Source: Candidatus Woesearchaeota archaeon
Lineage (GTDB): Archaea > Nanobdellota > Nanobdellia > Woesearchaeales > JABIAG01
Reading direction: 5' to 3'
DNA: 24,000 nt
Assembly (NCBI GenBank): GCA_018653365.1
Contig: JABIAG010000001.1
Coordinates: forward strand, 210,526-234,525
Shown here: positions 3,618-22,287 of the stretch, piece by piece
Numbering within the stretch: the stretch's first letter is position 1
How the letters are laid out: the number at the start of each line of letters is the position of its first letter
Program-made: the position numbers and the translations under genes
Notes under the pieces: model-generated
The model's database searches: none
What the model saw: the letters and a program-made list of their open reading frames with translations, nothing else
What the model was told of the DNA's origin: nothing

Positions 3618-5318
3618 TTATTTATGAGTAAACCAAAATTTGTATTTGTTGTTTTCTATGCTATCTAATCTACAAAAACCAAAACGTTCAAATTGACATA
3701 CGGCATTAACTTTTAATTTAGTTAGGGCGTTTTCAGAAAGACCGTGAATTGTTGTGTTGTCTGGCATAAGAATTTCGGTTTCAATAAGTTTTTCTTTAGG
3801 AAGCCAATGAATAATCGCGTTGCCATCCTTTTTATAATCTTCAAGATTTGTGCTTACAAATTCAAGTTGGTTGTCTTGTTTTTTAAAATTAAGACAATCC
3901 ATAAGTCTGATTAGGTTTCCATTTTCTATCTTATTGAAGTCTTCTGGTGCGAGGTAAAATTCTGTGTTGGTGTTGAACTTCCTTCCCCCTTTTTTATTAT
4001 CTGGATGAAGATCTAACTCAACTGTTTGATTTGGTGCATTGTTGATTGTAATTGCTTTTGGATCTTGAATGAAAAAGAATCTTTCTGCTTGGTTATCTAA
4101 AATTTTTCTACTCTCAGCAGCGATAACATCAAAATCTAAATTCGAATTAGCCTTAGACATACCAATTATCTTGGCAAGCTCATAATATGCTTCTTTTGGA
4201 ATTCCTCTTCTTTTTAGTGCTCTTAATGTAACTAATCTAATATCATCCCAACCATTATAGTTTCCAGATTCAATTAATTGCCTTATTTCTCTACCTTGAG
4301 TAACTGCGTTTTCTATCTTGAAACGAGCATACTGCTTGACTTCAGGATTGGGTAGTTGGAATAAATCTCTAATATGGTCTTGTAGTTCTATTCTAGAATC
4401 AAACTCGTTACTTCTCAAAACATGAGTTATATTGAGTAAACCCTCTTCAATAGCATTTTCAAAATCATACATGGGCCAAACTTTGTACTTAATTCCTTGT
4501 TTGTAATGTTTAGCATAAGCGAGTCTAAAAATAACTGGATCTCGCATTACCGCATTCTTATGTTGCATGTCAATTTTTAACCGCAAAGTTATAGAACCCT
4601 CTTCAGGAGTGCCTTTTTTCATCTCTTCCCAATCCGCTTTGGTTTGAGCATTATCTTTACTTCTGCAAGCACAATCTTCCATTGCACGTCTACCTTTAGA
4701 AATGCCTTCACTCTTACAAGAACAAGTATATGCTTGATCCTTATTTATTAATTGTTCAGCCATGTCATAATATTGATTCATGTGATCAGAAACAAAAACA
4801 GTTTTAGAAGGTTTAATATCAAGATACTCTAAAACATCTTCTTTCATAGCATCAACAAATTCTTCTGTAGATTTTTCGGGATTGGTATCCTCAAATCTCA
4901 AAACACATTTACCTTTGTATTTTAGAGAGTACATATAGTTTAGTAAAAAACTAATTGCATGACCAAAATGATTATACTTAGAAGGTTCAGGACTGATTCT
5001 AGTTATTACTTTGCCCTCAACTGCATTTTTTAACTCAGGTAGTTCATGACGTGACTCTTTACGCTTATCTTTTTGTTCTTTTTGTTCCTCAAAATAGTTT
5101 GGATCAATCTTGAGAAGTTCTGCTTTTTGATCTTCAACAGAAAGTTGGTTAATCTCACCAACAATTTCATTAATTTTTGGCATGATCTCACCCATCTTAG
5201 CTTTTCTACTAGGGTCTTCACCTAAAAGCTTACCAACTAGGGCTCCAGGGTTACACTTACCCTTGAATTTTAGGGCGTTTTCTAATGCATATTTTCGAAT
5301 TGAATCTTCTAAAGACAT
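3618..5318 (-). CDS. gltX: glutamyl-tRNA synthetase, archaeal/eukaryotic (GlxRS) type
   Basis: Class I motifs are present: PEPSKYNHFGHAISF (HIGH-like), VLRFEDTNPEK and IIGMSKAN (KMSKS-like). The N-terminus is the archaeal-type IRKYALENALKFKGKCNPGALVGKLL. I moved the start to Met18 of the track ORF (ATG 5318..5316), because the longer ORF overlaps the tRNA-Ala gene and a TATA-like element lies just upstream. Confidence 0.9.
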   Translation of the reverse strand: MSLEDSIRKYALENALKFKGKCNPGALVGKLLGEDPSRKAKMGEIMPKINEIVGEINQLSVEDQKAELLKIDPNYFEEQKEQKDKRKESRHELPELKNAVEGKVITRISPEPSKYNHFGHAISFLLNYMYSLKYKGKCVLRFEDTNPEKSTEEFVDAMKEDVLEYLDIKPSKTVFVSDHMNQYYDMAEQLINKDQAYTCSCKSEGISKGRRAMEDCACRSKDNAQTKADWEEMKKGTPEEGSITLRLKIDMQHKNAVMRDPVIFRLAYAKHYKQGIKYKVWPMYDFENAIEEGLLNITHVLRSNEFDSRIELQDHIRDLFQLPNPEVKQYARFKIENAVTQGREIRQLIESGNYNGWDDIRLVTLRALKRRGIPKEAYYELAKIIGMSKANSNLDFDVIAAESRKILDNQAERFFFIQDPKAITINNAPNQTVELDLHPDNKKGGRKFNTNTEFYLAPEDFNKIENGNLIRLMDCLNFKKQDNQLEFVSTNLEDYKKDGNAIIHWLPKEKLIETEILMPDNTTIHGLSENALTKLKVNAVCQFERFGFCRLDSIENNKYKFWFTHK

Positions 5319-10041: not shown

Positions 10042-10105
10042 ATTTGTTATTAAACCGAATACTTTTTAAATGTATTTCGACTCTTAATAACTGCTATGCA
10101 GGTAT

Positions 10106-10229
10106 GGCGGTGTAGCATAGTCTGGTCTATTGCGCTGGACTCATATCAATGAGTGATGAGCATTTATGCGATGAAATAACTTTTGCGTAAGAAATCCAGA
10201 GGTCGGGCGTTCAAATCCCCTCACCGCCA
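10106..10229 (+). tRNA. tRNA-Met(CAT), elongator-type (or Ile2-CAU), with a 48-nt intron at the canonical 37/38 position (10146-10193)
   Basis: Acceptor GGCGGTG/CACCGCC plus A. D arm GCAT-AGTCTGGTCTA-TTGC. Anticodon stem CTGGA/TCCAG with loop CT-CAT-A...A. T arm GGGCG-TTCAAAT-CCCCT (one C:C mismatch). The intron's ATGAGT pairs with ACTCAT of the anticodon loop. The G1:C72 pair argues against an initiator. Confidence 0.8.
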
Positions 10230-10239
10230 TTTTTTTAAA

Positions 10240-10722
10240 ATGACCAAAATTTATTCTCAACAAGAACTGGCTGAAGTAATAGCTAAATTAAAACAAGAAG
10301 GGAAAAAAGTAGTAACGACAAACGGAACATTTGACATTCTTCATCTCGCACATGTAAAAATTTTAGAAAAAGCTAACGAGTTAGGTGATGTTTTAGTTGT
10401 ATTAGTGAATTCTGACAGCTCGGTTAGAGAGAATAAGGGACCAAATAGGCCAATCGTTCCACAAGAAGAAAGAATGCAAATGTTGGCCTCCTTAGAATGT
10501 GTTGATTATGTAACCTGGTTCGATGAACAAGAAGTGGTTGAACCTCTAGCGAGATTAAAACCCTCTATCCATGCAAAGGGAGGGACATATATTCAGGAAA
10601 GAGTTGCGAAAGAACAAGAAGTAATGAAAGAAAATAAGGGTGAGTGGATAAACTTTGAGGTAGTTGAGGGGTATTCTACAACGAACGTTATTGAAAAAGT
10701 ATTGGATGTTTATAAAAAATAA
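10240..10722 (+). CDS. cytidylyltransferase-fold nucleotidyltransferase, most like RfaE/HldE domain II (D-beta-D-heptose 1-phosphate adenylyltransferase); RibL-type FAD synthase is the alternative
   Basis: VVTTNGTFDILHLAHVKILEKANELGDVLVVLVNSDSSVRENKGPNRPIVPQEERMQMLASLECVDYV...KPSIHAKGGTY matches the GxFDxxHxGH motif and the SDxSVxxxKGxxRPxxxxxxR pattern. I moved the start to ATG 10240 because the longer track ORF overlaps the tRNA-Met. Confidence 0.8.
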   Translation: MTKIYSQQELAEVIAKLKQEGKKVVTTNGTFDILHLAHVKILEKANELGDVLVVLVNSDSSVRENKGPNRPIVPQEERMQMLASLECVDYVTWFDEQEVVEPLARLKPSIHAKGGTYIQERVAKEQEVMKENKGEWINFEVVEGYSTTNVIEKVLDVYKK

Positions 10723-10760
10723 TAGAAAATTTTAAAAATCAATTCTGACTTGCGAGTTTA

Positions 10761-11651
10761 ATGAATGGGGTTCAATATGTTTCACTTTTATCCTCGAGCC
10801 ATTCCGGGTCTACTTTGTTAAGTATGTTAATGGCAGCTAATCCTAAAATTAGAAGTTTCGGAGATACATATCACAATTCAAATAAAGTAGTGTGCAGTTG
10901 TAATACTACTGTTAATAGGTGCAAATTTAGAAATGAAATTAATGAAAAATTAAAAAAGAAAGGTTTCAAGTTTGATTGGAAAAACCCCCTATATCCTCAC
11001 TTACTTTTTGATAAATTTAAACCCGCTTTTGTTAGAAAAACAAAACTGTTTAGGCTATATGTTAACTTGCCAAACTTTCTTAAAAAAATAATATATAATA
11101 AGAAAATAAAATTAGAATGCAACTTTGTAGATTCTTTAAAAGAAATAAACGATTTTTCATTATATTTTGATGGAAGCAAAAGCATAGTTCGTTTTGAAAC
11201 ACTAAAACAATTTGATAAAAACATTAAACTAATACATCTAATCAAGAGTCCGTATTCTTTCATTAATTCCTGTATCAAACACAAAAAAACAAATCTTTCG
11301 AGATGTCTTGAGGGTTGGCTAACTTATAACAATACGGTTAGAGAGTACAAAAAAGAATTAAAACATAATTATTTATTAATTAAATATGAAGAACTCGCAT
11401 CTAATCCAACAAAAGTTCTTAAAAAAATCTATAAGTTTATTGACATACCTGCATTTATACCTGATAATATAGAAAAAGAAAAAATGCATGTTTTAGGGAG
11501 CGAAATCAGATTTAAGTTAAATGATATATCTGACATCCAAAATAAGAATAAAGACCCTAAAAAAGTTTTAACTCCTAATATGATACGTTATGTTAATAAT
11601 AAGATTAAAGATATATTTTGGATTAAACAACTTTTCCCAAAAGTAGAATAA
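10761..11651 (+). CDS. sulfotransferase family protein
   Basis: The N-terminal LSSSHSGSTLLSMLMA resembles the 5'-PSB (PAPS-binding) loop xxRSGSTLL of Stf0-like sulfotransferases. The size (296 aa) fits. Confidence 0.6.
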   Translation: MNGVQYVSLLSSSHSGSTLLSMLMAANPKIRSFGDTYHNSNKVVCSCNTTVNRCKFRNEINEKLKKKGFKFDWKNPLYPHLLFDKFKPAFVRKTKLFRLYVNLPNFLKKIIYNKKIKLECNFVDSLKEINDFSLYFDGSKSIVRFETLKQFDKNIKLIHLIKSPYSFINSCIKHKKTNLSRCLEGWLTYNNTVREYKKELKHNYLLIKYEELASNPTKVLKKIYKFIDIPAFIPDNIEKEKMHVLGSEIRFKLNDISDIQNKNKDPKKVLTPNMIRYVNNKIKDIFWIKQLFPKVE

Positions 11652-11712
11652 GTTTTTCCTGAATTCTACTTGTTAAAATGATGTTGGTTGAGGTTATAAA
11701 AAATAAAATGCT

Positions 11713-11734
11713 CAGAAAACAAGTATGTTTTCTG
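11713..11734. terminator. 8-bp stem hairpin between convergent genes, flanked by T/A runs
   Basis: CAGAAAAC-AAGTAT-GTTTTCTG. Oligo-T runs lie on both strands nearby (minus-strand TTTTTTTATTT right after the 11765 stop). Confidence 0.3.
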
Positions 11735-11764
11735 GCACGACTAAAGTCAAATAAAAAAATTCCC

Positions 11765-12475
11765 TTAATAAGGGAATGGAGGTATTACTGGAGTGCTGGT
11801 TTCTAGAGTGGGTTCAAACTCATCCCAATATTTGATTAATACAGGGTAAGCTGCGAAATCATCTTCAGTTTCTTCCCAATCAAGAAAATCTCCATAAATA
11901 TTTTCCCATTCTTTAGAATATGAGTCCCACATATACATGCTTTCCATGTATGATGTGCCATCACGTTCATGAATGTTGAAATGAGCTCCAGGATAATTTT
12001 TTTGCATCTGAGGAAGAAGCACATAAAAGTTCCAACCATCAGCAAATTCAATACGGGTTTCTTGAATGGTTTCTAAGACCTCATCAGATTCAACTCTAAG
12101 AACCATGTTAGTATCTTCTTCCATGTAAACCCAAATTGAGGTAAATCCCATCACATCTACAACATACTCCAGTTCGTCATCATCTTCCATGATATCATAG
12201 AAAACTCGGTCATAAGGGTGGTAAATGTAGGCTGCCAGGAGATTTTCTTCAAAATCTCGGGAATAATCCATTTCAACACCATCTCCGTATGGAAGTAGGT
12301 TCCAACCCTCAGAAAGATATATGTTGCGCGTATTGTAATCCTCATCATAACCTTGAACTGCATAGTCAACATCAGTTACTTGTTCAATGTTATTAACTTC
12401 TAAAATGCTATCTGCACTAACTAAAGCAGTACTGCAAAGCATAAGAAGCATTAACATAAAAAATAGTTTTTTCAT
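11765..12475 (-). CDS. secreted acidic protein, unknown function
   Basis: Sec-type signal peptide MKKLFFMLMLLMLCSTALVSA/DS. The mature part is rich in D/E/Y/W. A 4-nt overlap (ATGA type) links it to the upstream small membrane ORF. Confidence 0.6.
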   Translation of the reverse strand: MKKLFFMLMLLMLCSTALVSADSILEVNNIEQVTDVDYAVQGYDEDYNTRNIYLSEGWNLLPYGDGVEMDYSRDFEENLLAAYIYHPYDRVFYDIMEDDDELEYVVDVMGFTSIWVYMEEDTNMVLRVESDEVLETIQETRIEFADGWNFYVLLPQMQKNYPGAHFNIHERDGTSYMESMYMWDSYSKEWENIYGDFLDWEETEDDFAAYPVLIKYWDEFEPTLETSTPVIPPFPY

Positions 12476-14879: not shown

Positions 14880-15752
14880 ATGAGCAAAAACTTTTATAAA
14901 AGTCATAAACAAATAATTTGGACTGTAGTAATCATGTTAATTCTATTTGCAGCAGTAAGTGGGTTTAATAAAACCACATCCTTTGGACAAATGGATTCTA
15001 GTGTCCGGATGGAAGAATCTTATTATAAAGGGGCAGGATTCGCAGAAACAAGCTCACTTAGAATGGATGATTCCGCTAGCGCTCCAACAGAGGGAGAAAG
15101 AAAAATTCGTCATACTGCAAACGTAAACTTAGAAATTAAAAAAAGTAAATATGAAGAAACTAAATCTGCAGTACTTACTGTTCCTGAACAATTTAAGGGA
15201 TTTTATACCAGTCAAAGTGAAAATAAAAGAACATACAAAGAAAATGATTACAAAACATATAGATTAACATTCAAAGTACCTGTAGAAAGCTTTGATATGG
15301 CTATAGCTGCAGTGAAAGAGCTTGCAGATGTAAAATCATTAAATGTGTATGCTGACGATTTAACAACTTCTTATGCAGACGCAAAAGCATATCTGGAAAG
15401 TTACAAAAAAGAAAAAGCAAGAATAGAACAATTGTTGAATAAAGCTAATAAGATACCTGAAATAATCCAGATAGAAGAGAAACTAATGCAATTACAACGA
15501 ACAATAGACAGATACCAACAACAAATAACAAACATTGATAGACAAACTGATTACTCACAAATTAGTGTAGTACTAGAAGAAAAACAACCTTTATCAGAAT
15601 CATTCTACCGATGGACAGGAATAAGAGAACACTTACGAAATATTGTTCGAGGATTTGATAGCGTGCTGGTTGTAATAACTAATCTGATTGGATGGGTTAT
15701 AGCAATAGGAATAATTTGGTGGATAGTAAAAATAATAAGAAAAAAAGTTTAA
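14880..15752 (+). CDS. DUF4349-like membrane protein (N- and C-terminal TM helices flanking a coiled-coil ectodomain)
   Basis: YRLTFKVPVESFDMAIAAVKELADVKSLNVYADDLTTSYADAKAYLESYKKEKARIEQLL...IEEKLMQLQRTIDRYQQQI...YSQISVVLEEK follows the DUF4349 architecture. Start set at ATG 14880, which is preceded by GGAGGT (14866-14871). Confidence 0.7.
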   Translation: MSKNFYKSHKQIIWTVVIMLILFAAVSGFNKTTSFGQMDSSVRMEESYYKGAGFAETSSLRMDDSASAPTEGERKIRHTANVNLEIKKSKYEETKSAVLTVPEQFKGFYTSQSENKRTYKENDYKTYRLTFKVPVESFDMAIAAVKELADVKSLNVYADDLTTSYADAKAYLESYKKEKARIEQLLNKANKIPEIIQIEEKLMQLQRTIDRYQQQITNIDRQTDYSQISVVLEEKQPLSESFYRWTGIREHLRNIVRGFDSVLVVITNLIGWVIAIGIIWWIVKIIRKKV

Positions 15753-15781
15753 AACATTTTTTTAAAGTTTAAAACATTTTT
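15744..15781. repeat. 18-nt perfect direct repeat with a 20-nt period (AAAGTTTAAAACATTTTT x2)
   Basis: Copies lie at 15744-15761 and 15764-15781. The first copy holds the stop codons of both convergent genes (TAA 15750-15752 on the plus strand, TAA 15751..15749 on the minus strand). Confidence 0.85.
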
Positions 15782-16186
15782 CTCCTTTTTTTTAATTAAA
15801 AAGATGTCTTTTTTAATTTTTTTTAATTTTTTTTGAAAAAATTTAATTTTTATTTTTGCAATTTTTTTGTTTTGAGGTTTTTTGTAAGATTTACTTTTAT
15901 ATTTTTTTATTAATTTCAGTAAGACTTCTTTTTTTACTTGTTTTTTTTCGAGATGATGTTTTGAAAACTTCTGTGTTAATCGAGTATAAATTAACATTAA
16001 GAAATAAAGAATGATTAGTACAGTAGTAACAATTTCTAAATAATTAATTTGAGCTTTCTTTAGATCTCTCAAAATTTTTAGAGTATTAATGAATGTTATT
16101 GAAATAATTAAACCAAAGGTTAATGTAATTAAAATGAGTTTAACCCTACTTAACAAAATTTGTTTTTTATTGGATTTCATTTTCAA
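15749..16186 (-). CDS. Lys-rich membrane protein (two TM helices plus a poly-K tail), last gene of the ParA operon
   Basis: 145-aa ORF overlapping the ParA stop by 20 nt, with TM helices LILITLTFGLIISITFI and IVTTVLIILYFLMLIY. The C-terminal half is low-complexity K-rich sequence read from poly-T DNA, so coding status is uncertain. Confidence 0.4.
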   Translation of the reverse strand: MKMKSNKKQILLSRVKLILITLTFGLIISITFINTLKILRDLKKAQINYLEIVTTVLIILYFLMLIYTRLTQKFSKHHLEKKQVKKEVLLKLIKKYKSKSYKKPQNKKIAKIKIKFFQKKLKKIKKDIFLIKKKEKNVLNFKKMF

Positions 16187-16970
16187 TTAATAATTTTTTA
16201 ACATCTTCTTGTGTTATCTTCTTTTTGAATAATTGTCTTATTCTATGTTTAAATGGATCTTTTTTAAGATTAGTTTCTGTAATTTTAGCAGCTAGGTTGG
16301 TGTAAAGCTTAGTAATACAAGACTTTGGATTGTGAAAGACAACTGAAGATGTATTCACTATAGCTTTGCTAAACTGGGGGCTTGTTGGAATTGTCGAAAT
16401 AACCCTGATTTTAGTTGCGTTTTCAATATCTTCTTTAGTTAATTCCGAAGATTTTTTACTAATATTGTTTAATACAATCCCTTTAATAGGAATTCTTTTT
16501 TGATTAATTAAACTAATTGCTTTCAATGTAGAACTTAATCCTAGGTAATCCGCATTACTAACAATTAAAACCTCGTCAGAGGCAGAAATTGCAGAAGTAG
16601 TAGAAGAATTTAATGAAGGTGAAGTATCTAAAATAACATAATCATAAAATTGTCTTAACTCATTAAGCTTATGTTTAAGTGTGAACATATTGACTTTTTT
16701 TGATAAGACCGCAGAAGGTAAGATATATAACCCTGTATTAATTTTATAAACCGCATTATTGGTAGAAGTTTTTCCTTTTAAAATATCTTGAAACGTGTTA
16801 TCTGGATTAATAATGCCAAAATGTAGTCCCACACTTGGTGAAGAAAAATTTGAATCTACAATCAAAACTTTCTTATTAAGATCTTTAGATAATGCACTAC
16901 CCAGATTAAGTGCGGTAGTGGTTTTACCAACCCCTCCTTTGAATGAAACAACACTTATAATTTTAGACAT
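16167..16970 (-). CDS. ParA/MinD-family P-loop ATPase (deviant Walker A)
   Basis: MSKIISVVSFKGGVGKTTTALNLGSAL carries the KGGxGKT deviant Walker A with its signature Lys. Walker B is YVILDTSP. VLIVSNADYLGLSSTLKAI is also typical. Start set at Met10 of the track ORF (ATG 16970). Confidence 0.85.
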   Translation of the reverse strand: MSKIISVVSFKGGVGKTTTALNLGSALSKDLNKKVLIVDSNFSSPSVGLHFGIINPDNTFQDILKGKTSTNNAVYKINTGLYILPSAVLSKKVNMFTLKHKLNELRQFYDYVILDTSPSLNSSTTSAISASDEVLIVSNADYLGLSSTLKAISLINQKRIPIKGIVLNNISKKSSELTKEDIENATKIRVISTIPTSPQFSKAIVNTSSVVFHNPKSCITKLYTNLAAKITETNLKKDPFKHRIRQLFKKKITQEDVKKLLIENEIQ

Positions 16971-17640
16971 TTTTATATACCTCGCATAGACAATCAATAA
17001 TTTTATTTTTTTTATTGATGGTAATGACTTTTTTTGTTTTAAATTCTTTTAATGTTTTTTTTGCATTTGCAACAGGTTTTTTGGTTTTAATGGGTTCTCT
17101 TAAATTAAAAATTTGAATTAATTTATTAATTATTTTTTTCTTTTGCGGATATTTTGTTGAGTTGTGACGTTCTTTTGCTTTTTTAATTGTTTCTTTAATT
17201 TTTATTTGTTGATTATTAATAGTAATTCTTGTTTTTATACCTAAGTTTTTTATGTTTGGGAGGTGATTGCCCTGTGCAGAACGAATTGCATTACGAATTT
17301 CTTGTTCTGCTGAAATTTTCCGCTTAAATTTATGCTTAGCTTTATTTAACGAATTTTTAGTTTTATACTTGAAAATTTTACTGTGTTTTTTAATATTTAA
17401 TCTACGTTTTTCTTTGGGCCAAAGGGCGTTGGAATTTAGAATTAAAAAGTGAAATTTTTTCGTTTTTAATAAGTTACGTTTGTTCTTAAAGGTATTGCGT
17501 TTTGTTTCTTTAGGAAGACGGAGTTTATTTTTAAATTTGTGCCAGGCAAGTCTATTAGCGAGTCTGAATTCTTTCTTCGCTTTTTTTTCTTCAAGTCTTT
17601 CAAGTTTATTTTTCATTGTGAAATTTATTTGTTGCTCCAT
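16963..17640 (-). CDS. very basic Lys/Arg-rich protein (putative nucleic-acid-binding adaptor), no recognisable domain
   Basis: 225-aa ORF in ~20% GC DNA. It overlaps the wHTH gene stop (16 nt) and the ParA start (8 nt). Sequence example: KKAKKEFRLANRLAWHKFKNKLRLPKETKRNTFKNKRN... An alternative start is ATG 17616. Confidence 0.5.
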   Translation of the reverse strand: MEQQINFTMKNKLERLEEKKAKKEFRLANRLAWHKFKNKLRLPKETKRNTFKNKRNLLKTKKFHFLILNSNALWPKEKRRLNIKKHSKIFKYKTKNSLNKAKHKFKRKISAEQEIRNAIRSAQGNHLPNIKNLGIKTRITINNQQIKIKETIKKAKERHNSTKYPQKKKIINKLIQIFNLREPIKTKKPVANAKKTLKEFKTKKVITINKKNKIIDCLCEVYKNV

Positions 17641-17837
17641 ACATTGATATTTGAGACGTTAAACCCGTGAACCCTTCCACGAATCTGTAATTTAAGACAG
17701 TGAGTTTGAACAGCGTGCCAAGAACGGTTAATTGTGAGCGCAATATCTCGAGTAGATTTGGGATTTGGGGAATTTTTTAGAACTTTCAGTATATCTTTAT
17801 CTATTCTTTCGCCTAATTTGGCTTTCCTGGTAACCAT
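17625..17837 (-). CDS. small winged-helix DNA-binding protein, first gene of the ParA operon
   Basis: MVTRKAKLGERIDKDILKVLKNSPNPKSTRDIALTINRSWHAVQTHCLKLQIRGRVHGF fits the wHTH pattern (helix, turn, recognition helix, beta wing). The track ORF extends to 17882; ATG 17837 is preferred. Confidence 0.6.
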   Translation of the reverse strand: MVTRKAKLGERIDKDILKVLKNSPNPKSTRDIALTINRSWHAVQTHCLKLQIRGRVHGFNVSNINVWSNK

Positions 17838-17892
17838 TATTTGTTTAATTATTTGGTTAAGTATATAAACCTTTGTCACCACTAGTAAGTGT

Positions 17893-17935
17893 GAAGGTTA
17901 AGTTGAAGGTTTTATCAACTGTTGAACCGAAGGTT
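17893..17935. promoter_or_regulatory. three GAAGGTT direct repeats plus a GAACC-N3-GGTTC hairpin upstream of the wHTH/ParA operon, a candidate operator or centromere-like site
   Basis: GAAGGTT occurs at 17893-17899, 17905-17911 and 17929-17935. GTTGAAGGTT and GTTGAACCGAAGGTT are related. On the minus strand the hairpin reads GAAC-C(UUCG)G-GUUC. Confidence 0.4.
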
Positions 17936-18036
17936 CGCACTTAGAGAATGTATATTTTATCATATCATAAAATTTAAAAAAGAAAAACGACTAAACAACA
18001 TAAAAAGAGGCGTATAATAGCATACGAGGTACGAAA

Positions 18037-18564
18037 ATGAATAAAGGACCTGCTGTAGCAGACTTCTGGAACAGCGCAGAACTAACTTCGGGATGTATCT
18101 CTTGTGGAAAACATTACTTCTACATAGATTGGGATGGAAACATAATGCCTTGCGTATTTATTCCATACTACCAAGATAATCTTAAAGACCTGTACGCTAA
18201 CGGCAAAAGCATAATGGATGCAATGTTCTCTGACCTATTTACCAAAGGAAGAGCCTGGCAAAAAGACAATTTTACTAAAAAAGATGGTAAAGTAAGAAAT
18301 TTAATGATGCCCTGTCTTGTTAGAGATAATCACAAAGACTTTGTATCAATTGTAAAATCTTGTGAGGGTGTGAAAGGAGAAGATCAAGCAGCAACAGATG
18401 CACTAAATTCTGACGAATACCACGCAGACCTAGAACAGTTTGATGAAGATCTCAAAAAAATAGAAGATCCATACTGGGAAGAGCACTACGAAATGAAAGA
18501 TTCAGAAGAAAACTCTTCTGAAGCTGAAAAATCTGCGGAAAAAGGTACAATGGAAGAAGAATAA
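18037..18564 (+). CDS. radical-SAM C-terminal auxiliary-cluster (SPASM/twitch-like) domain ORF lacking the radical-SAM core; probable gene fragment, with an acidic tail
   Basis: SGCISCGKHYFYIDWDGNIMPCVFIPY...MMPCLVRDNH resembles the C-terminal Cys motif (CxxC...GxxxPC) of radical SAM maturases. There is no CxxxCxxC motif. An in-frame stop at 18001-18003 limits the ORF to 175 aa. Confidence 0.55.
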   Translation: MNKGPAVADFWNSAELTSGCISCGKHYFYIDWDGNIMPCVFIPYYQDNLKDLYANGKSIMDAMFSDLFTKGRAWQKDNFTKKDGKVRNLMMPCLVRDNHKDFVSIVKSCEGVKGEDQAATDALNSDEYHADLEQFDEDLKKIEDPYWEEHYEMKDSEENSSEAEKSAEKGTMEEE

Positions 18565-18570
18565 ACTTCT

Positions 18571-18587
18571 TTATTTTTTTATTTTTT
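18571..18587 (+). terminator. oligo-T tracts after the radical-SAM fragment ORF
   Basis: TTATTTTTTTATTTTTT follows the TAA at 18562-18564 by 6 nt. It overlaps the stop of the convergent gene. Confidence 0.35.
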
Positions 18588-19469
18588 ATACCAACACTTT
18601 TCTTGAGTATCCCATGCTAAATTAATGTTTGAGGGGAGTGAGGGTTCAACTTGATCTAATTTAATATCTTCATTTAATAAAAACGCTAAATCTTCTGCAG
18701 TTGGTTCCGCATCTGGATCAAACTCATTAGTCCAACACTCAATAAAATCTCCTGTTCGAGTCGTTCGCCAAACAGGATCAAAAAATATTTTACCCTCTGA
18801 TTCTAATTGATATATTTCCTGCCAGTCAATAACCCTGTTGTTTGCAGCCTCTTCTTCACTTTCAGGATGAGGAACATACCCTTCTGTTGATTGAGCTTCA
18901 TTTGGATCACCAAAAGGATTTGTAGGATTGAGCCAGGGCATTGTCCCTTTATGATTTTCAGTTACATTAACTCCATGCAACGCTCCATACTCTGCAATTC
19001 TCTTTCGAATATTTGAACGATCAGGATCTTCAACAGGTGGATGATCCTCGATTGCTTTTTCTAAGACTTCTGCATCTGAAGTTTGTTCTTTAGTTCGTAA
19101 TAATTCCGGATTGGCAATTATGTCTCGATATTTGAGTTCAAGATGGGATGAGTTAAGCCAATGGACTTTAGTAACCCATTTATCCCATACCCGTCCATCT
19201 CTAAGCAAACTATATGTACGAATTTTAACACTTTTGTTAACTCCTCTTGCTTCAATACGTTTTGGACTGTCCTTAACCACTTTATGTTCAAAATACTCAT
19301 CAAAAATCCAAACACTAGAAAGTTGATACTCAATTGGTCCTGCACTAATTTGACCTGTTTTAACAACTAATTCAACAAGCCCATCTCTCATAATTCGATC
19401 ACCTGGCTTAAGACCTTTTAATAATTCAACATCCGGAGAAAACTCAACAGTTTGATACCAATCACTCAT
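18579..19469 (-). CDS. hypothetical Trp-rich acidic protein (orphan)
   Basis: 296-aa ORF. I recognised no motif. A hand-counted sample is ~42% G+C, higher than neighbouring genes. Confidence 0.6.
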   Translation of the reverse strand: MSDWYQTVEFSPDVELLKGLKPGDRIMRDGLVELVVKTGQISAGPIEYQLSSVWIFDEYFEHKVVKDSPKRIEARGVNKSVKIRTYSLLRDGRVWDKWVTKVHWLNSSHLELKYRDIIANPELLRTKEQTSDAEVLEKAIEDHPPVEDPDRSNIRKRIAEYGALHGVNVTENHKGTMPWLNPTNPFGDPNEAQSTEGYVPHPESEEEAANNRVIDWQEIYQLESEGKIFFDPVWRTTRTGDFIECWTNEFDPDAEPTAEDLAFLLNEDIKLDQVEPSLPSNINLAWDTQEKCWYKK

Positions 19470-19523
19470 GACTATAAAGTAAGTTTAATGTGTTTAAAAA
19501 AACTATTGTGATAAAAGAAAATA

Positions 19524-19600
19524 CGCCGCAGCCCAGATTTGTGTCATCACTTCGCTAACGCTACGTTCTGGACGAATCCATTCTTTGCGTAAAGAAATTA
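19524..19600 (-). pseudogene. orphan tRNA-Ser 3'-portion remnant directly downstream of the intact tRNA-Ser
   Basis: Minus strand: the 3' end CAAATCTGGGCTGCGGCG parallels the intact gene's CGAATCCGAGCTGCGGCG. TCTTTACGCAAAGAAT parallels the variable arm TCTTTCCGCAAGGATAT. TGGATTCGTCCAG parallels the T arm. There is no 5' acceptor strand, D arm or anticodon arm. Confidence 0.55.
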
Positions 19601-19713
19601 CGCCGCAGCTCGGATTCGAACCGAGATATCCTTGCGGAAAGACGCTATCTTCATTGCGTTTGTGTGAACGCAAGATTCGAGGCGACCGGAGTACCAGATT
19701 GTCCCACTGCGGC
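19601..19713 (-). tRNA. tRNA-Ser (anticodon CGA), class II, with a 29-nt intron at 37/38 (19647-19675)
   Basis: Minus strand: acceptor GCCGCAG/CTGCGGC plus G. D arm GGA(C)-AATCTGGTA-(C)TCC. Anticodon stem GTCGC/GCGTC (one U:U) with loop CT-CGA-A[intron]A. Long variable arm TTTCCGCAAGGATAT (GCAA loop). T arm CTCGG-TTCGAAT-CCGAG. The intron holds the hairpin TTGCGT/ACGCAA. Confidence 0.8.
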
Positions 19714-19726
19714 AAATGTATGAGAA

Positions 19727-21520
19727 CTATTTCGAGGGTTCTTGAGTTTCTTTCTTTTTAAGAGCTTCTTTAGCAACTGCATCTAATTCGATGTGTAAAT
19801 CTTTTAATTGTTTATCCTCAATTGGGGAGGGACTCTCATCCATTGGACATTCAGCTGCTTTATTCTTAGGAAAGGCAATCACTTCACGAATATCATTAGT
19901 ACCATTCATTAAAGCAATAAGTCTATCTGCACCCAAACCCATTCCACCATGAGAGGGCGCACCATAATTATATGCATTAAGTAAAAACCCAAACTTAGTT
20001 TGAGCCTCTTCTTCACTTAAACCAATGAATTTCATAACTCTTTTTTGCACTTCAGGATTAGTAACTCTAATTGAACCAGAACCTAATTCTGTTCCATTAA
20101 GAACAAGATCCCACAAGTCACCCTTGACTTTTTCTGGGCAGGTTTCAAAATTATCAACAAATTCAGGATTTGGCATAGAGAACATATGATGTTCAGGTTC
20201 CCAACGTTTATCTTCTTCGTTCCAAGCAAATAAAGGGAAATCTTTAACCCAACAAAATTTGAAGTCATCTTTATTGTATAATTCAAGATCTTCAGCAAGT
20301 TTATTTCTAAGTCTAGATAAAATGTCATTACATTTTTTTTCTTTATCTGCTATAAACATTAAAATCGAACCTGGTTTAGCTCCAACTTTTGCAATAAGTT
20401 CTTTTTGAACATCTTCAGAAAAGTATTTAGCAATATTACTTTCTAATCCGTTTTCAGTAACACGCATCCAGGCCATACCTTTAGCACCGCTTTTCTGACA
20501 GAAATCAATATATGCATCAATTTCTTTTCTTCCTAACTCTTTTTGAGGATTGATACATTTAACAATTCCACCTGCCGCTTTAATGTCCTTGAAAACACCA
20601 AAATCAGATTTAATAACAATGTCAGTAACTTCAGTTAAGAAAAGATCAAATCTAATGTCTGGCTTGTCATTACCATATTTTTCCATGGATTCTTTATATG
20701 AAAAGACCTTAAACTCAGTTATTTCTTTATTTAGTACCTCTTTGAAAATGTGTTTGAAAAGTTTTTCAACCATATTTCTAATATCATCACTTGTAACAAA
20801 ACTCATTTCTAAATCAAGTTGCATGTGCTCAGGTTGACGATCTGCTCGTAAATCTTCATCCCGCAAACAGATTGCAGTTTGATAATATCTGTCACAACCA
20901 GAAATCATAAGAATCTGTTTGTATAATTGTGGTGATTGAGGTAGGGCGTAAAATCCGCCAGCATTAACTCTGGAAGGAACAACATAATCTCTAGCACCCT
21001 CAGGAGTAGACTTAACTAACATAGGGGTTGTAATTTCTAAAAAGTCATTTTTGTTAAAAAAATCTCTAGCAGCAGAAATGATTTTATGCCGACTTAACAA
21101 TCTCTTTTGCATTAAAGGTCTACGTAAGTCTAAGTAACGATATTTTAGTCTAAGTTCTTCACCTGCTTCAACTCGATCATCAACTTCAATAGGCGGAACA
21201 GCAGATTTATTAATAATATTAAGTGTATCAGCAAAAACTTCAACCTCTCCAGTAGGAAGCTTTTTGTTAGTCATACCCTCTTTTCGAGCCCTAACTTCGC
21301 CCTTAATTTCAATACAAAACTCTCGTCGTAAAGATTCTGCAGCCTCCATAACTGTAGAATTAAATTCGGGATCAAAAACTACTTGAGTTAAACCATATCT
21401 ATCTCTTAAATCAACAAAAATAATTCCACCATGATCTCTTCGAGTGTGAACCCAACCAACTAAATTAACCTTATCTCCAATATTTTCTTTCTTTAGTTCG
21501 TTGTTCTTATGAGTTCTCAT
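19727..21520 (-). CDS. aspS: aspartyl-tRNA synthetase, bacterial type (with GAD insertion domain)
   Basis: The 597-aa protein is colinear with E. coli AspRS along its whole length as I recall it: GWVHTRRDHGGIIFVDLRDRYG, LKYRYLDLRR, TPEGARDYVVPSR, FYALPQSPQLYKQ, RDEDLRADRQPE, the ~130-aa insertion, GGGSIR-like GSGSIR, and GGMGLGADRLIALM...IREVIAFPK. Confidence 0.95.
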   Translation of the reverse strand: MRTHKNNELKKENIGDKVNLVGWVHTRRDHGGIIFVDLRDRYGLTQVVFDPEFNSTVMEAAESLRREFCIEIKGEVRARKEGMTNKKLPTGEVEVFADTLNIINKSAVPPIEVDDRVEAGEELRLKYRYLDLRRPLMQKRLLSRHKIISAARDFFNKNDFLEITTPMLVKSTPEGARDYVVPSRVNAGGFYALPQSPQLYKQILMISGCDRYYQTAICLRDEDLRADRQPEHMQLDLEMSFVTSDDIRNMVEKLFKHIFKEVLNKEITEFKVFSYKESMEKYGNDKPDIRFDLFLTEVTDIVIKSDFGVFKDIKAAGGIVKCINPQKELGRKEIDAYIDFCQKSGAKGMAWMRVTENGLESNIAKYFSEDVQKELIAKVGAKPGSILMFIADKEKKCNDILSRLRNKLAEDLELYNKDDFKFCWVKDFPLFAWNEEDKRWEPEHHMFSMPNPEFVDNFETCPEKVKGDLWDLVLNGTELGSGSIRVTNPEVQKRVMKFIGLSEEEAQTKFGFLLNAYNYGAPSHGGMGLGADRLIALMNGTNDIREVIAFPKNKAAECPMDESPSPIEDKQLKDLHIELDAVAKEALKKKETQEPSK

Positions 21521-22130: not shown

Positions 22131-22153
22131 AGTTATGGATTAGTTTTGTTTAT

Positions 22154-22243
22154 GGGCCTGTAGCATAATCTGGATAGTGCGGCTGGCTTCGGTTTTTTCC
22201 GAGATGAAACCAGTTGATCGGGGTTCAAATCCTCGCAGGCTCA
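22154..22243 (+). tRNA. tRNA-Arg (anticodon TCG) with a 16-nt intron at 37/38 (22193-22208)
   Basis: Acceptor GGGCCTG/CAGGCTC plus A. D arm GCAT-AATCTGGATA-GTGC. Anticodon stem GCTGG/CCAGT with loop CT-TCG-G[intron]A. T arm CGGGG-TTCAAAT-CCTCG. The intron's CCGAG pairs with the anticodon-loop CTTCGG. Confidence 0.85.
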
Positions 22244-22287
22244 TATTCTAATTATCTTTATAAATGAACTAATATTATTAGTTAAAT

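Follow-up and report, generated by a model that had tools for sequence, protein, structure and literature searches.

What is an ATPase of the ParA/MinD family doing between an extremely basic protein and a small Lys-rich membrane protein on the minus strand of a Candidatus Woesearchaeota genome? The stretch analysed here, 24,000 nt of this archaeon (hereafter the window), contains a cassette of four genes encoding, in order of transcription, a small winged helix-turn-helix (wHTH) protein, the basic protein, the ATPase and the membrane protein. A preliminary description, made from the letters of the window, had correctly placed these four minus-strand open reading frames (ORFs) and recognized a tightly coupled operon around a ParA/MinD-family ATPase with partner proteins, and it proposed an AspA-ParB-ParA-like segregation system or a plasmid remnant. 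With moderate confidence we instead read the cassette as a reduced form of a conserved DPANN operon, in which a MinD-type ATPase organizes a giant surface protein via its tail and the wHTH protein regulates the operon. The related DPANN loci compared with the window are referred to by labels (L001, L090, L097 and so on, and P0234).

On its own the basic protein was uninformative. No Pfam or NCBIfam family matched it, in keeping with the earlier remark that it carries no ParB-like motif, no PDB sequence matched it below E 0.4, and a database search recovered only the protein itself. A single-sequence AlphaFold2 (AF2) model consisted of long extended helices with no globular fold (pTM 0.22) and was too poor for a fold search. 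Its homology emerged from the genes neighbouring the ATPase homologues. Over residues 73-225 it shares 61% identity (E 2e-47) with the end of an L001 protein of more than 1,151 aa, its first ~70 residues show a weak match to the tail of that protein just before the conserved block, and the fragment upstream of the ATPase in L006 (ATPase 59% identical) is likewise homologous to the basic protein. The L001 giant has an ectodomain rich in N-glycosylation sites with Ig-like/NEW3 domains, a single transmembrane (TM) helix and a long cytoplasmic tail.

The close relative L097 shows what is missing from the window. Nucleotide identity between the two is 80-85%, and protein identity is 89% for aspartyl-tRNA synthetase (AspRS) and 90% for the wHTH protein. 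L097 is collinear with the window from the AspRS gene to the end of the wHTH gene. Beyond that point it has an intact giant gene (>886 aa), whose product carries a signal peptide; its radical-SAM gene is intact too. Since an intact giant gene stands at the same place in L097, the lineage of the window must have deleted the region from about the fifth codon to about 220 codons before the end of the gene. By these alignments the basic protein is what is left of a giant surface protein (1,000-2,000 aa): the final ~220 residues of its cytoplasmic tail have been retained, and its signal peptide, ectodomain, TM helix and coiled-coil repeats have been deleted. NCBI records place the start of the basic gene at ATG 17616 (217 aa), leaving an 8-nt gap after the wHTH gene, and this codon matches the position of the giant-gene start codon in relatives. 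The C-terminal region of the basic protein has an omega ratio of ~0.09, the same as AspRS. Its net charge over the last 80 aa is +19, compared with +17 to +19 within the subclade of the window, L001 and L006 and -4 to +9 elsewhere; because the extreme basicity is limited to this subclade, charge-based DNA binding is not a property of the family.

The membrane protein can be placed in the same way. Its second TM helix and tail are 33% identical over 100 aa to the two-TM protein of L001 (E 7e-12 without and 2e-5 with composition correction), and they also align to the post-ATPase or two-TM proteins of L090, L102 and L094 (310-354 aa). By this comparison it is the two-TM partner (~330 aa) minus the ~200-aa helical ectodomain between its TM helices. 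A 115-aa truncated variant was seen in one sample. A multi-TM gene (185 aa) follows the two-TM gene in L001, L090 and L102 and is absent from the window.

In full, the operon has the order 12-bp repeat array, TATA box, small wHTH gene, giant type-I surface-protein gene, MinD-type ATPase gene, two-TM gene and multi-TM gene (full and variant loci are listed in Table 1). Operons of this kind invariably begin with the wHTH gene and the array. The ATPase of L001 is 72% identical to that of the window. All three internal deletions that could be mapped in the window are in frame, and every ORF is intact. As a separate observation, divergence is much faster in the operon than in housekeeping genes: AspRS shares ~90% identity with L093/L001 and with L097, the wHTH protein 90% with L097 but only 72% with L093, and the ATPase 72% with L001. 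Such a difference points to allelic replacement in the surface-protein operon or to its rapid evolution.

The ATPase is a member of the ParA/MinD (deviant Walker A, SIMIBI) superfamily, carrying the sequence SFKGGVGKTT and matching Pfam AAA_31 at 2.3e-27, with K11, K16, D39 and D115 invariant in a 35-sequence clade alignment. Its top NCBIfam match, by a wide margin, is TIGR01969 minD_arch (160.2 bits, 4.8e-47), followed by minD_bact (88) and ParA_partition (NF041546); the latter scores 70.6 bits against a cutoff of 180, placing the protein outside the partition-type ParAs. The best PDB relatives are MinD proteins from Pyrococcus and Archaeoglobus (1g3q, 1hyq, 1ion; 92-105 bits), with Soj/ParA (~50 bits) and the Sulfolobus SegA-like chain 7dut (40 bits) further down. 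Judged by these scores the ATPase sits nearest archaeal MinD rather than ParA, and it clusters with the MinD-type positioning ATPases, an outcome that the preliminary description had itself set against segregation.

In this family a C-terminal amphipathic helix marks the ATPases that use the membrane as matrix and a basic surface those that use DNA; the helix provides membrane binding, and a short partner peptide provides activation (PMC11407121). The amphipathic helix predicted near the C-terminus of the window ATPase (Table 1) has a hydrophobic moment of 0.65, compared with 0.38 for the membrane-targeting sequence (MTS) of Escherichia coli MinD on the same scale, and a [KR]ΦxxΦKxΦF[KR] segment is conserved there throughout the clade. 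MinC and MinE domains were found neither in the cassette proteins (Pfam and NCBIfam) nor in 19 further ORFs of the window (Pfam). An identity as a bacterial tyrosine kinase (BY-kinase) paired with a two-TM co-polymerase (PCP) was rejected, as the ATPase tail DPFKHRIRQLFKKKITQEDVKKLLIENEIQ has no tyrosine cluster and the family scores are weak and under their cutoffs (TIGR03018, 65 bits against 230, 4.9e-18; TIGR01007, 55 against 108, 5.8e-15). Tail-anchor insertion of the Get3/ArsA type was rejected as well, since the ArsA match is at the level of the P-loop only and the giant protein has an N-terminal signal.

A link between the ATPase and the protein encoded upstream of it is suggested by a shared C-terminus. 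At 13 loci the protein upstream of the ATPase always ends in ΦΦxxL[KR]x[VA][YHF] (for instance VIDKLKEAY, VLNKLKDVY or LLKELRKAY). These proteins are otherwise diverse, being a giant surface protein, a charged soluble protein of 66-89 aa or a DUF5752-like protein (L013); the small soluble partners that carry the motif are those of L011 (80 aa), L012 (66 aa) and L016 (89 aa). The pattern, which was written from the same ATPase-upstream sequences that it then matched, occurs in the last 25 aa of 9 of 833 ORFs from the DPANN loci, and all nine are ATPase-upstream ORFs. The giant protein of L094, a locus without ATPase, lacks the motif. In the window the GAGGT codons of the motif double as the Shine-Dalgarno sequence of the ATPase gene. 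In L031 and L016 the genes lie apart and these codons do not serve as a Shine-Dalgarno sequence, yet the motif is still there; these two loci, together with the hydrophobic positions, argue for a real peptide motif. Such a peptide may dock onto the ATPase or activate it.

At the tail/ATPase junction of two relatives, L001 (3451-3606) and L002 (839-994), an insertion of ~148 nt creates a 51-aa ORF whose start (MSK..) copies the start of the ATPase and whose end (..TEVQNV*) copies the end of the tail; it looks like a duplicated junction.

The gene junctions themselves recur. The overlap of exactly 8 nt between the basic and ATPase genes is also present in L001, L102, L103 and L003. The other two overlaps given in the preliminary description, 16 and 20 nt, depend on the choice of start codon: 16 nt between the wHTH and basic genes is obtained only with ATG 17640, and 20 nt between the ATPase and membrane genes only from a TTG, while ATG 16180 gives 14 nt, the form found in L001, L006, L090 and L102.

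The wHTH protein at the head of the operon belongs to an unannotated DPANN family. An exhaustive HMMER scan found 65 homologues at E<=1e-3 and a profile search 164; the latter all come from DPANN lineages, and none of the 164 has a Pfam domain. The window protein itself reached no Pfam family above threshold (HTH_24 at E 0.05). Its AF2 model (pLDDT 92.4) has helices at 4-22, 29-36 and 40-52 and strands at 56-61 and 64-69, which is the H1-(short β)-H2-H3-β-hairpin order of a winged helix, and Foldseek returned generic wHTH folds only (Zα, ArsR, MarR, BlaI; TM-score 0.7-0.8, E ~1e-3), with TubR at rank 20. The omega ratio against L097 is 0.085, the same as for AspRS. Alignment of the homologues and the promoter geometry lead us to favour ATG 17837 (70 aa) as the start over a GTG that would extend the gene to 17625-17882. 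The gene has been left uncalled in many public records.

At every readable locus of this family the wHTH gene lies just upstream of a large or signal-peptide-bearing surface-protein gene, usually with an overlap of 1-4 nt. Since the family also heads giant-gene operons without ATPase (L094, L095, L096 and P0234), it is not a dedicated ParA partner.

That the wHTH protein and the repeats upstream of its gene are real and belong together, as first supposed, is borne out by the relatives. On the coding strand the array reads GTGCG-AACCTTCggttc-AACAGTTgataa-AACCTTCaactt-AACCTTCacact, that is, four 12-bp units. AACCTTC occurs three times inside 43 bp (17893-17935), at spacings of 12 and 24 with the degenerate fourth unit between, and it is not enriched across the whole window (7 found, 4.5 expected). 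The first unit doubles as an inverted repeat, GAACC-TTC-GGTTC. Some 18 bp separate the end of the array from the TATA box downstream of it, and the distance from TATA box to ATG is 23-25 nt in five other loci (L093, L097, L090, L094 and L102), a geometry from which we predict that the operon transcript driven by this box is leaderless or nearly so. L093 has four 12-bp units with an AACCTT core, L097 has five units, as read from the sequence, with the same core, and L090 has 5-6 units which keep the 12-bp period with another core, ATACCAATA; for L093 and L090 none of 200 shuffles reached this. Related 12-bp units are also present upstream in L102. The architecture of the array is thus conserved between relatives while the sequence of the unit changes along with the wHTH protein, as expected if the wHTH protein binds the array, and the array is its probable binding site.

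Other elements were seen upstream of wHTH genes. Runs of short hairpins centred on CCGAAGG lie there in L095 (6700-6850) and L096 (5850-5960), and the same core is found inside the window inverted repeat GAACC-GAA-GGTTC (plus strand, 17924-17936). L095 and L096 also share a second conserved element, TGCGATAYATCGTAC, distinct from the hairpins.

It is clear that the four ORFs are genes. Under a codon model built from 18 confidently identified window genes, each has a positive score in its own frame and negative scores in the remaining five. Homologues of all four exist elsewhere, and there are no frameshifts or internal stops in any of them. The earlier caution that the basic and membrane ORFs might be spurious can be set aside, as both have homologues in relatives.

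The cassette is chromosomal in Candidatus Woesearchaeota. An identical ATPase protein is encoded on 38 contigs with this name, of up to 1.11 Mb, and the sequence of the cassette is essentially unchanged among 30-40 independently assembled contigs. It is flanked by housekeeping genes (AspRS, glutamyl-tRNA synthetase, tRNAs and HIT), and AspRS adjoins the locus in three related genomes (synteny named for L093 and L097). A location on a plasmid or mobile element is therefore not supported, and neither is the suggestion of a plasmid remnant. A PADLOC scan gave no defence-system match of note, the sole phage-family match in PHROGs was a generic ParA-like family and uninformative, and a sigma-70 promoter scan, a bacterial model irrelevant for an archaeon, gave fewer sites than in shuffles.

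As was noted at the outset, the cassette is the most AT-rich part of the window: its GC content is 0.245-0.285, compared with 0.31-0.38 for most other parts, and it contains long poly-A runs. A second dip (0.278-0.290) lies at 10501-12000. The AT-richness fits the 25% lysine in two of the products, whose tails use Lys AAA codons. A horizontal island as the source of the low GC was rejected, given the synteny in three genomes and these Lys codons.

Table 1 Features of the cassette and its surroundings in the window, and related DPANN loci (for the latter the locus is given in place of the position).
Feature	Position or locus	Strand	Remarks
Two-TM protein, 143 aa, Lys-rich cytoplasmic tail	15749-16180 (ATG; to 16186 with TTG)	-	annotated in public records
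ParA/MinD-family ATPase, MinD-type, 267 aa, deviant Walker A KGGVGKT	16167-16970	-	Pfam AAA_31, CbiA, ParA
Predicted amphipathic helix FKHRIRQLFKK, residues 240-250 of the ATPase	16221-16253	-	likeness to MinD membrane-targeting sequence
Basic ORF, 225 aa (217 aa from ATG 17616)	16963-17640	-	25% Lys
C-terminal motif IIDCLCEVY, form ΦΦxxL[KR]x[VA][YHF]	16975-17001	-	ATPase-upstream junctions of 13 loci
wHTH gene, first of the operon, 70-aa minimal winged helix	17625-17837	-	homologue N-termini align at ATG 17837
Archaeal TATA box TTTATATA	17862-17869	-	24 nt upstream of ATG 17837
Four 12-bp direct-repeat units; candidate wHTH site	17888-17935	-	three exact AACCTTC, one degenerate AACAGTT
Radical-SAM/SPASM gene, 175 aa, in-frame internal deletion, divergent from cassette	18037-18564	+	Pfam SPASM domain only
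tRNA-Ser(CGA), complete, 29-nt intron	19600-19714	-	aragorn -i
Full operon	L090/L010		wHTH 71 aa, giant 1440 aa, ATPase 269 aa, two-TM 328 aa, multi-TM 185 aa
Full operon	L102		gene order as in L090
Variant	L103		wHTH, giant 1054 aa, ATPase
Variant	L093 and L001		both from one sample
Variant	L031		wHTH-like ORF, giant 877 aa, ATPase
Giant downstream of wHTH	L090		1440 aa
Giant downstream of wHTH	L094		1956 aa; no ATPase
Giant downstream of wHTH	L095		>3836 aa, 74-aa ORF intervening; no ATPase
Giant downstream of wHTH	L096		2322 aa; no ATPase
Giant downstream of wHTH	P0234		1690 aa; no ATPase
wHTH upstream of surface-protein gene	L093, L097, L102, L103		
wHTH upstream of signal-peptide start	L099, L100, L101		short contigs; only this start of the downstream gene readable

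The anatomy described above would fit the following scheme. The wHTH protein would bind the repeats just upstream of the TATA box and control the leaderless operon transcript. The ATP-bound dimer of the ATPase would be held on the membrane by the C-terminal amphipathic helix and would dock on the conserved ΦΦxxLKEVY peptide with which the upstream gene product ends. Where the system is intact, such docking would tether the ATPase to the cytoplasmic tail of the giant and so pattern or position the giant and its two-TM partner in the envelope, analogous to other ParA/MinD ATPases that position membrane cargo. In the window the ectodomains of the cargo are gone, and the ATPase is left with a partner peptide that is now soluble and with a mini membrane protein; as this resembles natural pairs of small partner and ATPase in other DPANN genomes, the remaining components may still cycle on the membrane.

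A wider proposal can be put forward only tentatively, and we think it possible but doubtful as a whole: that this is an undescribed surface-organizing system of DPANN archaea, in which a MinD-type ATPase is tethered by a C-terminal peptide to the tails of giant, fast-evolving and probably host-attaching proteins, with the operon under a dedicated wHTH protein acting on a 12-bp array, and that the window holds a minimal derivative whose free soluble docking peptide still drives the ATPase cycle on the membrane. A literature search found no description of the operon, the wHTH family or the motif. A preprint on the Dip oscillator was considered and rejected; it concerns an unrelated GTPase and not this system.

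Several points weigh against reading the cassette as a working, reduced surface-protein operon. Every mechanistic step rests on gene anatomy. In overlapping arrangements the codons for K-E-V, AAGAGGTG, are at the same time the Shine-Dalgarno sequence of the ATPase gene, so that part of the conservation of the motif lies at the nucleotide level, and the loci that separate the peptide from this constraint, L031 and L016, are a small sample of just two. Known partners of ParA/MinD ATPases usually present an N-terminal and not a C-terminal peptide (PMC11407121). The ATPase scores below the curated cutoff of TIGR01969 (160.2 against 201.75 bits). The cargo ectodomains, the multi-TM gene and the neighbouring radical-SAM domain have been lost, which may mean that the cassette is simply decaying, and the deletions cannot be dated, because the omega values are pairwise and the synonymous divergence (dS) against L001 is saturated (>2).

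One alternative is that the loss of the giant left three genes without purpose (tail ORF, ATPase and mini membrane ORF), which now only await further deletion. Four losses in one place (~2.8 kb from the 5' part of the giant gene, the two-TM ectodomain, the 185-aa multi-TM gene and the radical-SAM domain of the neighbour), the lowest GC of the window with its long poly-A runs, and the 115-aa variant of the membrane protein in one sample would all agree with such decay. A decaying cassette is less easily reconciled, however, with four ORFs free of frameshifts and internal stops, with deletions that are in frame and have kept the start-stop overlaps and the Shine-Dalgarno sequence, with a full set of intact catalytic residues in the ATPase, with a sequence that is near-invariant over 30-40 independently assembled contigs, or with an omega of ~0.09, and pairs of a small soluble partner with such an ATPase exist naturally elsewhere. 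We therefore regard a non-functional remnant as unlikely. A role in biogenesis, where the ATPase and the two-TM and multi-TM proteins would help to export, insert or assemble the giant, in the manner of BY-kinase/two-TM co-polymerase pairs or of FlhG-type assembly control, seems still less probable. PCP/BY-kinase pairs consist of a two-TM protein with an ectodomain between its TM helices beside a ParA/MinD-like ATPase, and the two-TM partner here, whose TM helices enclose a helical ectodomain and whose C-terminal tail is cytoplasmic, likewise stands beside such an ATPase, which does give weak matches to tyrosine autokinases (TIGR03018 at 4.9e-18, TIGR01007 at 5.8e-15). The MinD matches are far stronger (4.8e-47) and the C-terminal tyrosine cluster is missing; moreover, some giant-protein operons lack an ATPase altogether, so that export does not require the ATPase, and its clade pairs with small soluble partners too.

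The segregation model, finally, takes the wHTH protein for a centromere-binding protein on the repeats, the basic protein for a DNA-binding adaptor, the ATPase for a ParA motor and the membrane protein for an anchor. The partition sites tubC and parC, recognized by TubR and ParR, are built of tandem direct repeats, and the wHTH gene with its tandem 12-bp array at the head of the operon resembles such a site; TubR is among the Foldseek matches, the middle protein is extremely basic (net +19 over its last 80 aa), and PHROGs labels the ATPase a 'ParA-like partition protein'. The same components look different when seen across the relatives. The Foldseek matches are to generic wHTH folds at E ~1e-3, TubR being at rank 20, and the wHTH family also heads giant-gene operons lacking an ATPase; the basic protein derives from a membrane-anchored surface protein, of which it is the tail, and its extreme basicity is confined to the subclade of the window, L001 and L006, with -4 to +9 elsewhere; the ATPase is MinD-type with a predicted membrane helix. 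Searches of Pfam, NCBIfam, PDB and Foldseek found no similarity to ParB, SegB or AspA, and the locus is chromosomal, syntenic and single. We consider segregation of the AspA-ParB-ParA kind very improbable and favour the reduced surface-protein operon instead.

The surroundings of the cassette offer further observations. The truncated gene that was said to border it is the radical-SAM/SPASM gene, of 175 aa compared with 494 aa for the L097 orthologue (3673-5157), and the window copy retains the start (MNKG..) and the last ~168 aa. Its omega ratio against L097 is 0.09. It is outside the system but part of the same local erosion. The supposed tRNA remnant, in contrast, is a complete tRNA-Ser(CGA) with an intron, 88% identical to that of L097; the T-arms of the two differ by compensatory changes (CTCGG/CCGAG against CTCAG/CTGAG). 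Three tRNAs with introns escaped ARAGORN at its default settings and were recovered with aragorn -i, and Rfam gave nothing in 17400-20000 even at E<=1, this tRNA-Ser included. The other two recovered tRNAs are a second tRNA-Ser(CGA) with a 48-nt intron and one typed 'SeC(tca)' with a 16-nt intron, at 10105-10230 (+) and 22153-22244 (+); the 'SeC(tca)' label is probably a mis-typing by aragorn, and Rfam labels both simply tRNA.

Between the tRNA-Ser and the SPASM gene lies a 296-aa ORF (18579-19469, minus strand) with no Pfam match. It is unlike the 299-aa ORF of L097 (2768-3667), although this occupies the same slot in the same orientation of an otherwise collinear region, and the position looks like a variable gene slot. 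The AspRS gene (19727-21520, minus strand) encodes a protein of bacterial type with 597 aa and a GAD insertion domain, though the genome is archaeal. Among the relatives, a gene for a KaiC/RecA-like ATPase (PF06745, DUF7125) adjoins the wHTH/giant operon in two unrelated loci, L090 (10529-11530, minus strand) and L094 (5823-6812, plus strand). In some marine DPANN loci (L003, 661-978 and 1728-2060; L013, 3883-4992) small DUF5752-like 'NDFANW' proteins flank the ATPase, and in L003 a weak ScpA-like gene lies just upstream.

We know of no account of how DPANN archaea build and place their giant surface proteins, which are thought to mediate host attachment. If true, a MinD-type positioning ATPase that is hard-wired to the tail of a giant protein would give a concrete handle on the placement of such proteins, and it would extend the MinD-like ATPases beyond the Euryarchaeota. 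The comparison also brings out an unannotated family of wHTH proteins and a partner-peptide motif, which might help in the search for the cargo of orphan ParA/MinD ATPases. For annotation there are lessons as well: a basic protein without domains can be the stump of a giant gene, a small wHTH gene is missed by many gene callers, and a supposed tRNA remnant can, judging from its sequence, be a functional tRNA with an intron.

Among known systems the archaeal MinDs (1g3q, 1ion, 1hyq; MinD4 and MinD2 of Haloferax volcanii) are among the closest, being the best family and structure matches and sharing the deviant Walker A. MinD4 of H. volcanii needs a C-terminal MTS, to be compared with the predicted C-terminal amphipathic helix here, and it positions membrane-associated machinery and not the divisome; an earlier survey found archaeal MinD-like genes only in Euryarchaeota (10.1101/2020.04.03.021790). 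In contrast to these proteins, the window ATPase falls under the TIGR01969 cutoff, comes from a DPANN genome, is encoded in an overlapping operon with a dedicated upstream partner that bears the C-terminal motif, and has membrane-protein neighbours, which are not reported for the haloarchaeal MinDs.

The order of a small wHTH gene, a middle gene and a ParA/MinD ATPase gene, with repeats upstream of the first, is shared with AspA-ParB-ParA of pNOB8 and with SegAB of Sulfolobus. Here, however, the ATPase is MinD-type (just 40 bits to the SegA-like 7dut), the middle protein is a surface-protein tail without ParB domain, the wHTH family goes with giant genes rather than with the ATPase, membrane components are present, and the locus is chromosomal and syntenic. 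TubR/tubC, ParR/parC and the omega protein of pSM19035 are examples of small repeat-binding proteins that autoregulate their own operons. The window resembles them in having a small putative DNA-binding protein first in the operon and tandem repeats (12-bp units in this case) that abut the promoter and change with the protein between lineages; it differs in that the match of the wHTH protein to TubR is generic, in having no cytomotive partner of the TubZ/ParM type and in having surface and membrane genes downstream.

Further parallels are bacterial MinD-MinE and other cargo-positioning pairs (ParC/PpfA of chemoreceptor arrays, McdA-McdB and FlhG), where a ParA/MinD ATPase with a matrix-binding C-terminus is encoded next to a partner that presents a peptide (PMC11407121). 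The cargo would be alike too, as we infer a membrane protein assembly for the system described here. Unlike in those pairs, the peptide is at the extreme C-terminus rather than the N-terminus, there are no MinC or MinE homologues, and the partner is the cytoplasmic tail of a giant or, in the window, a free remnant of 217-225 aa. We read the system as a variant of the ParA/MinD cargo-positioning theme, of which the window holds a degenerate example.

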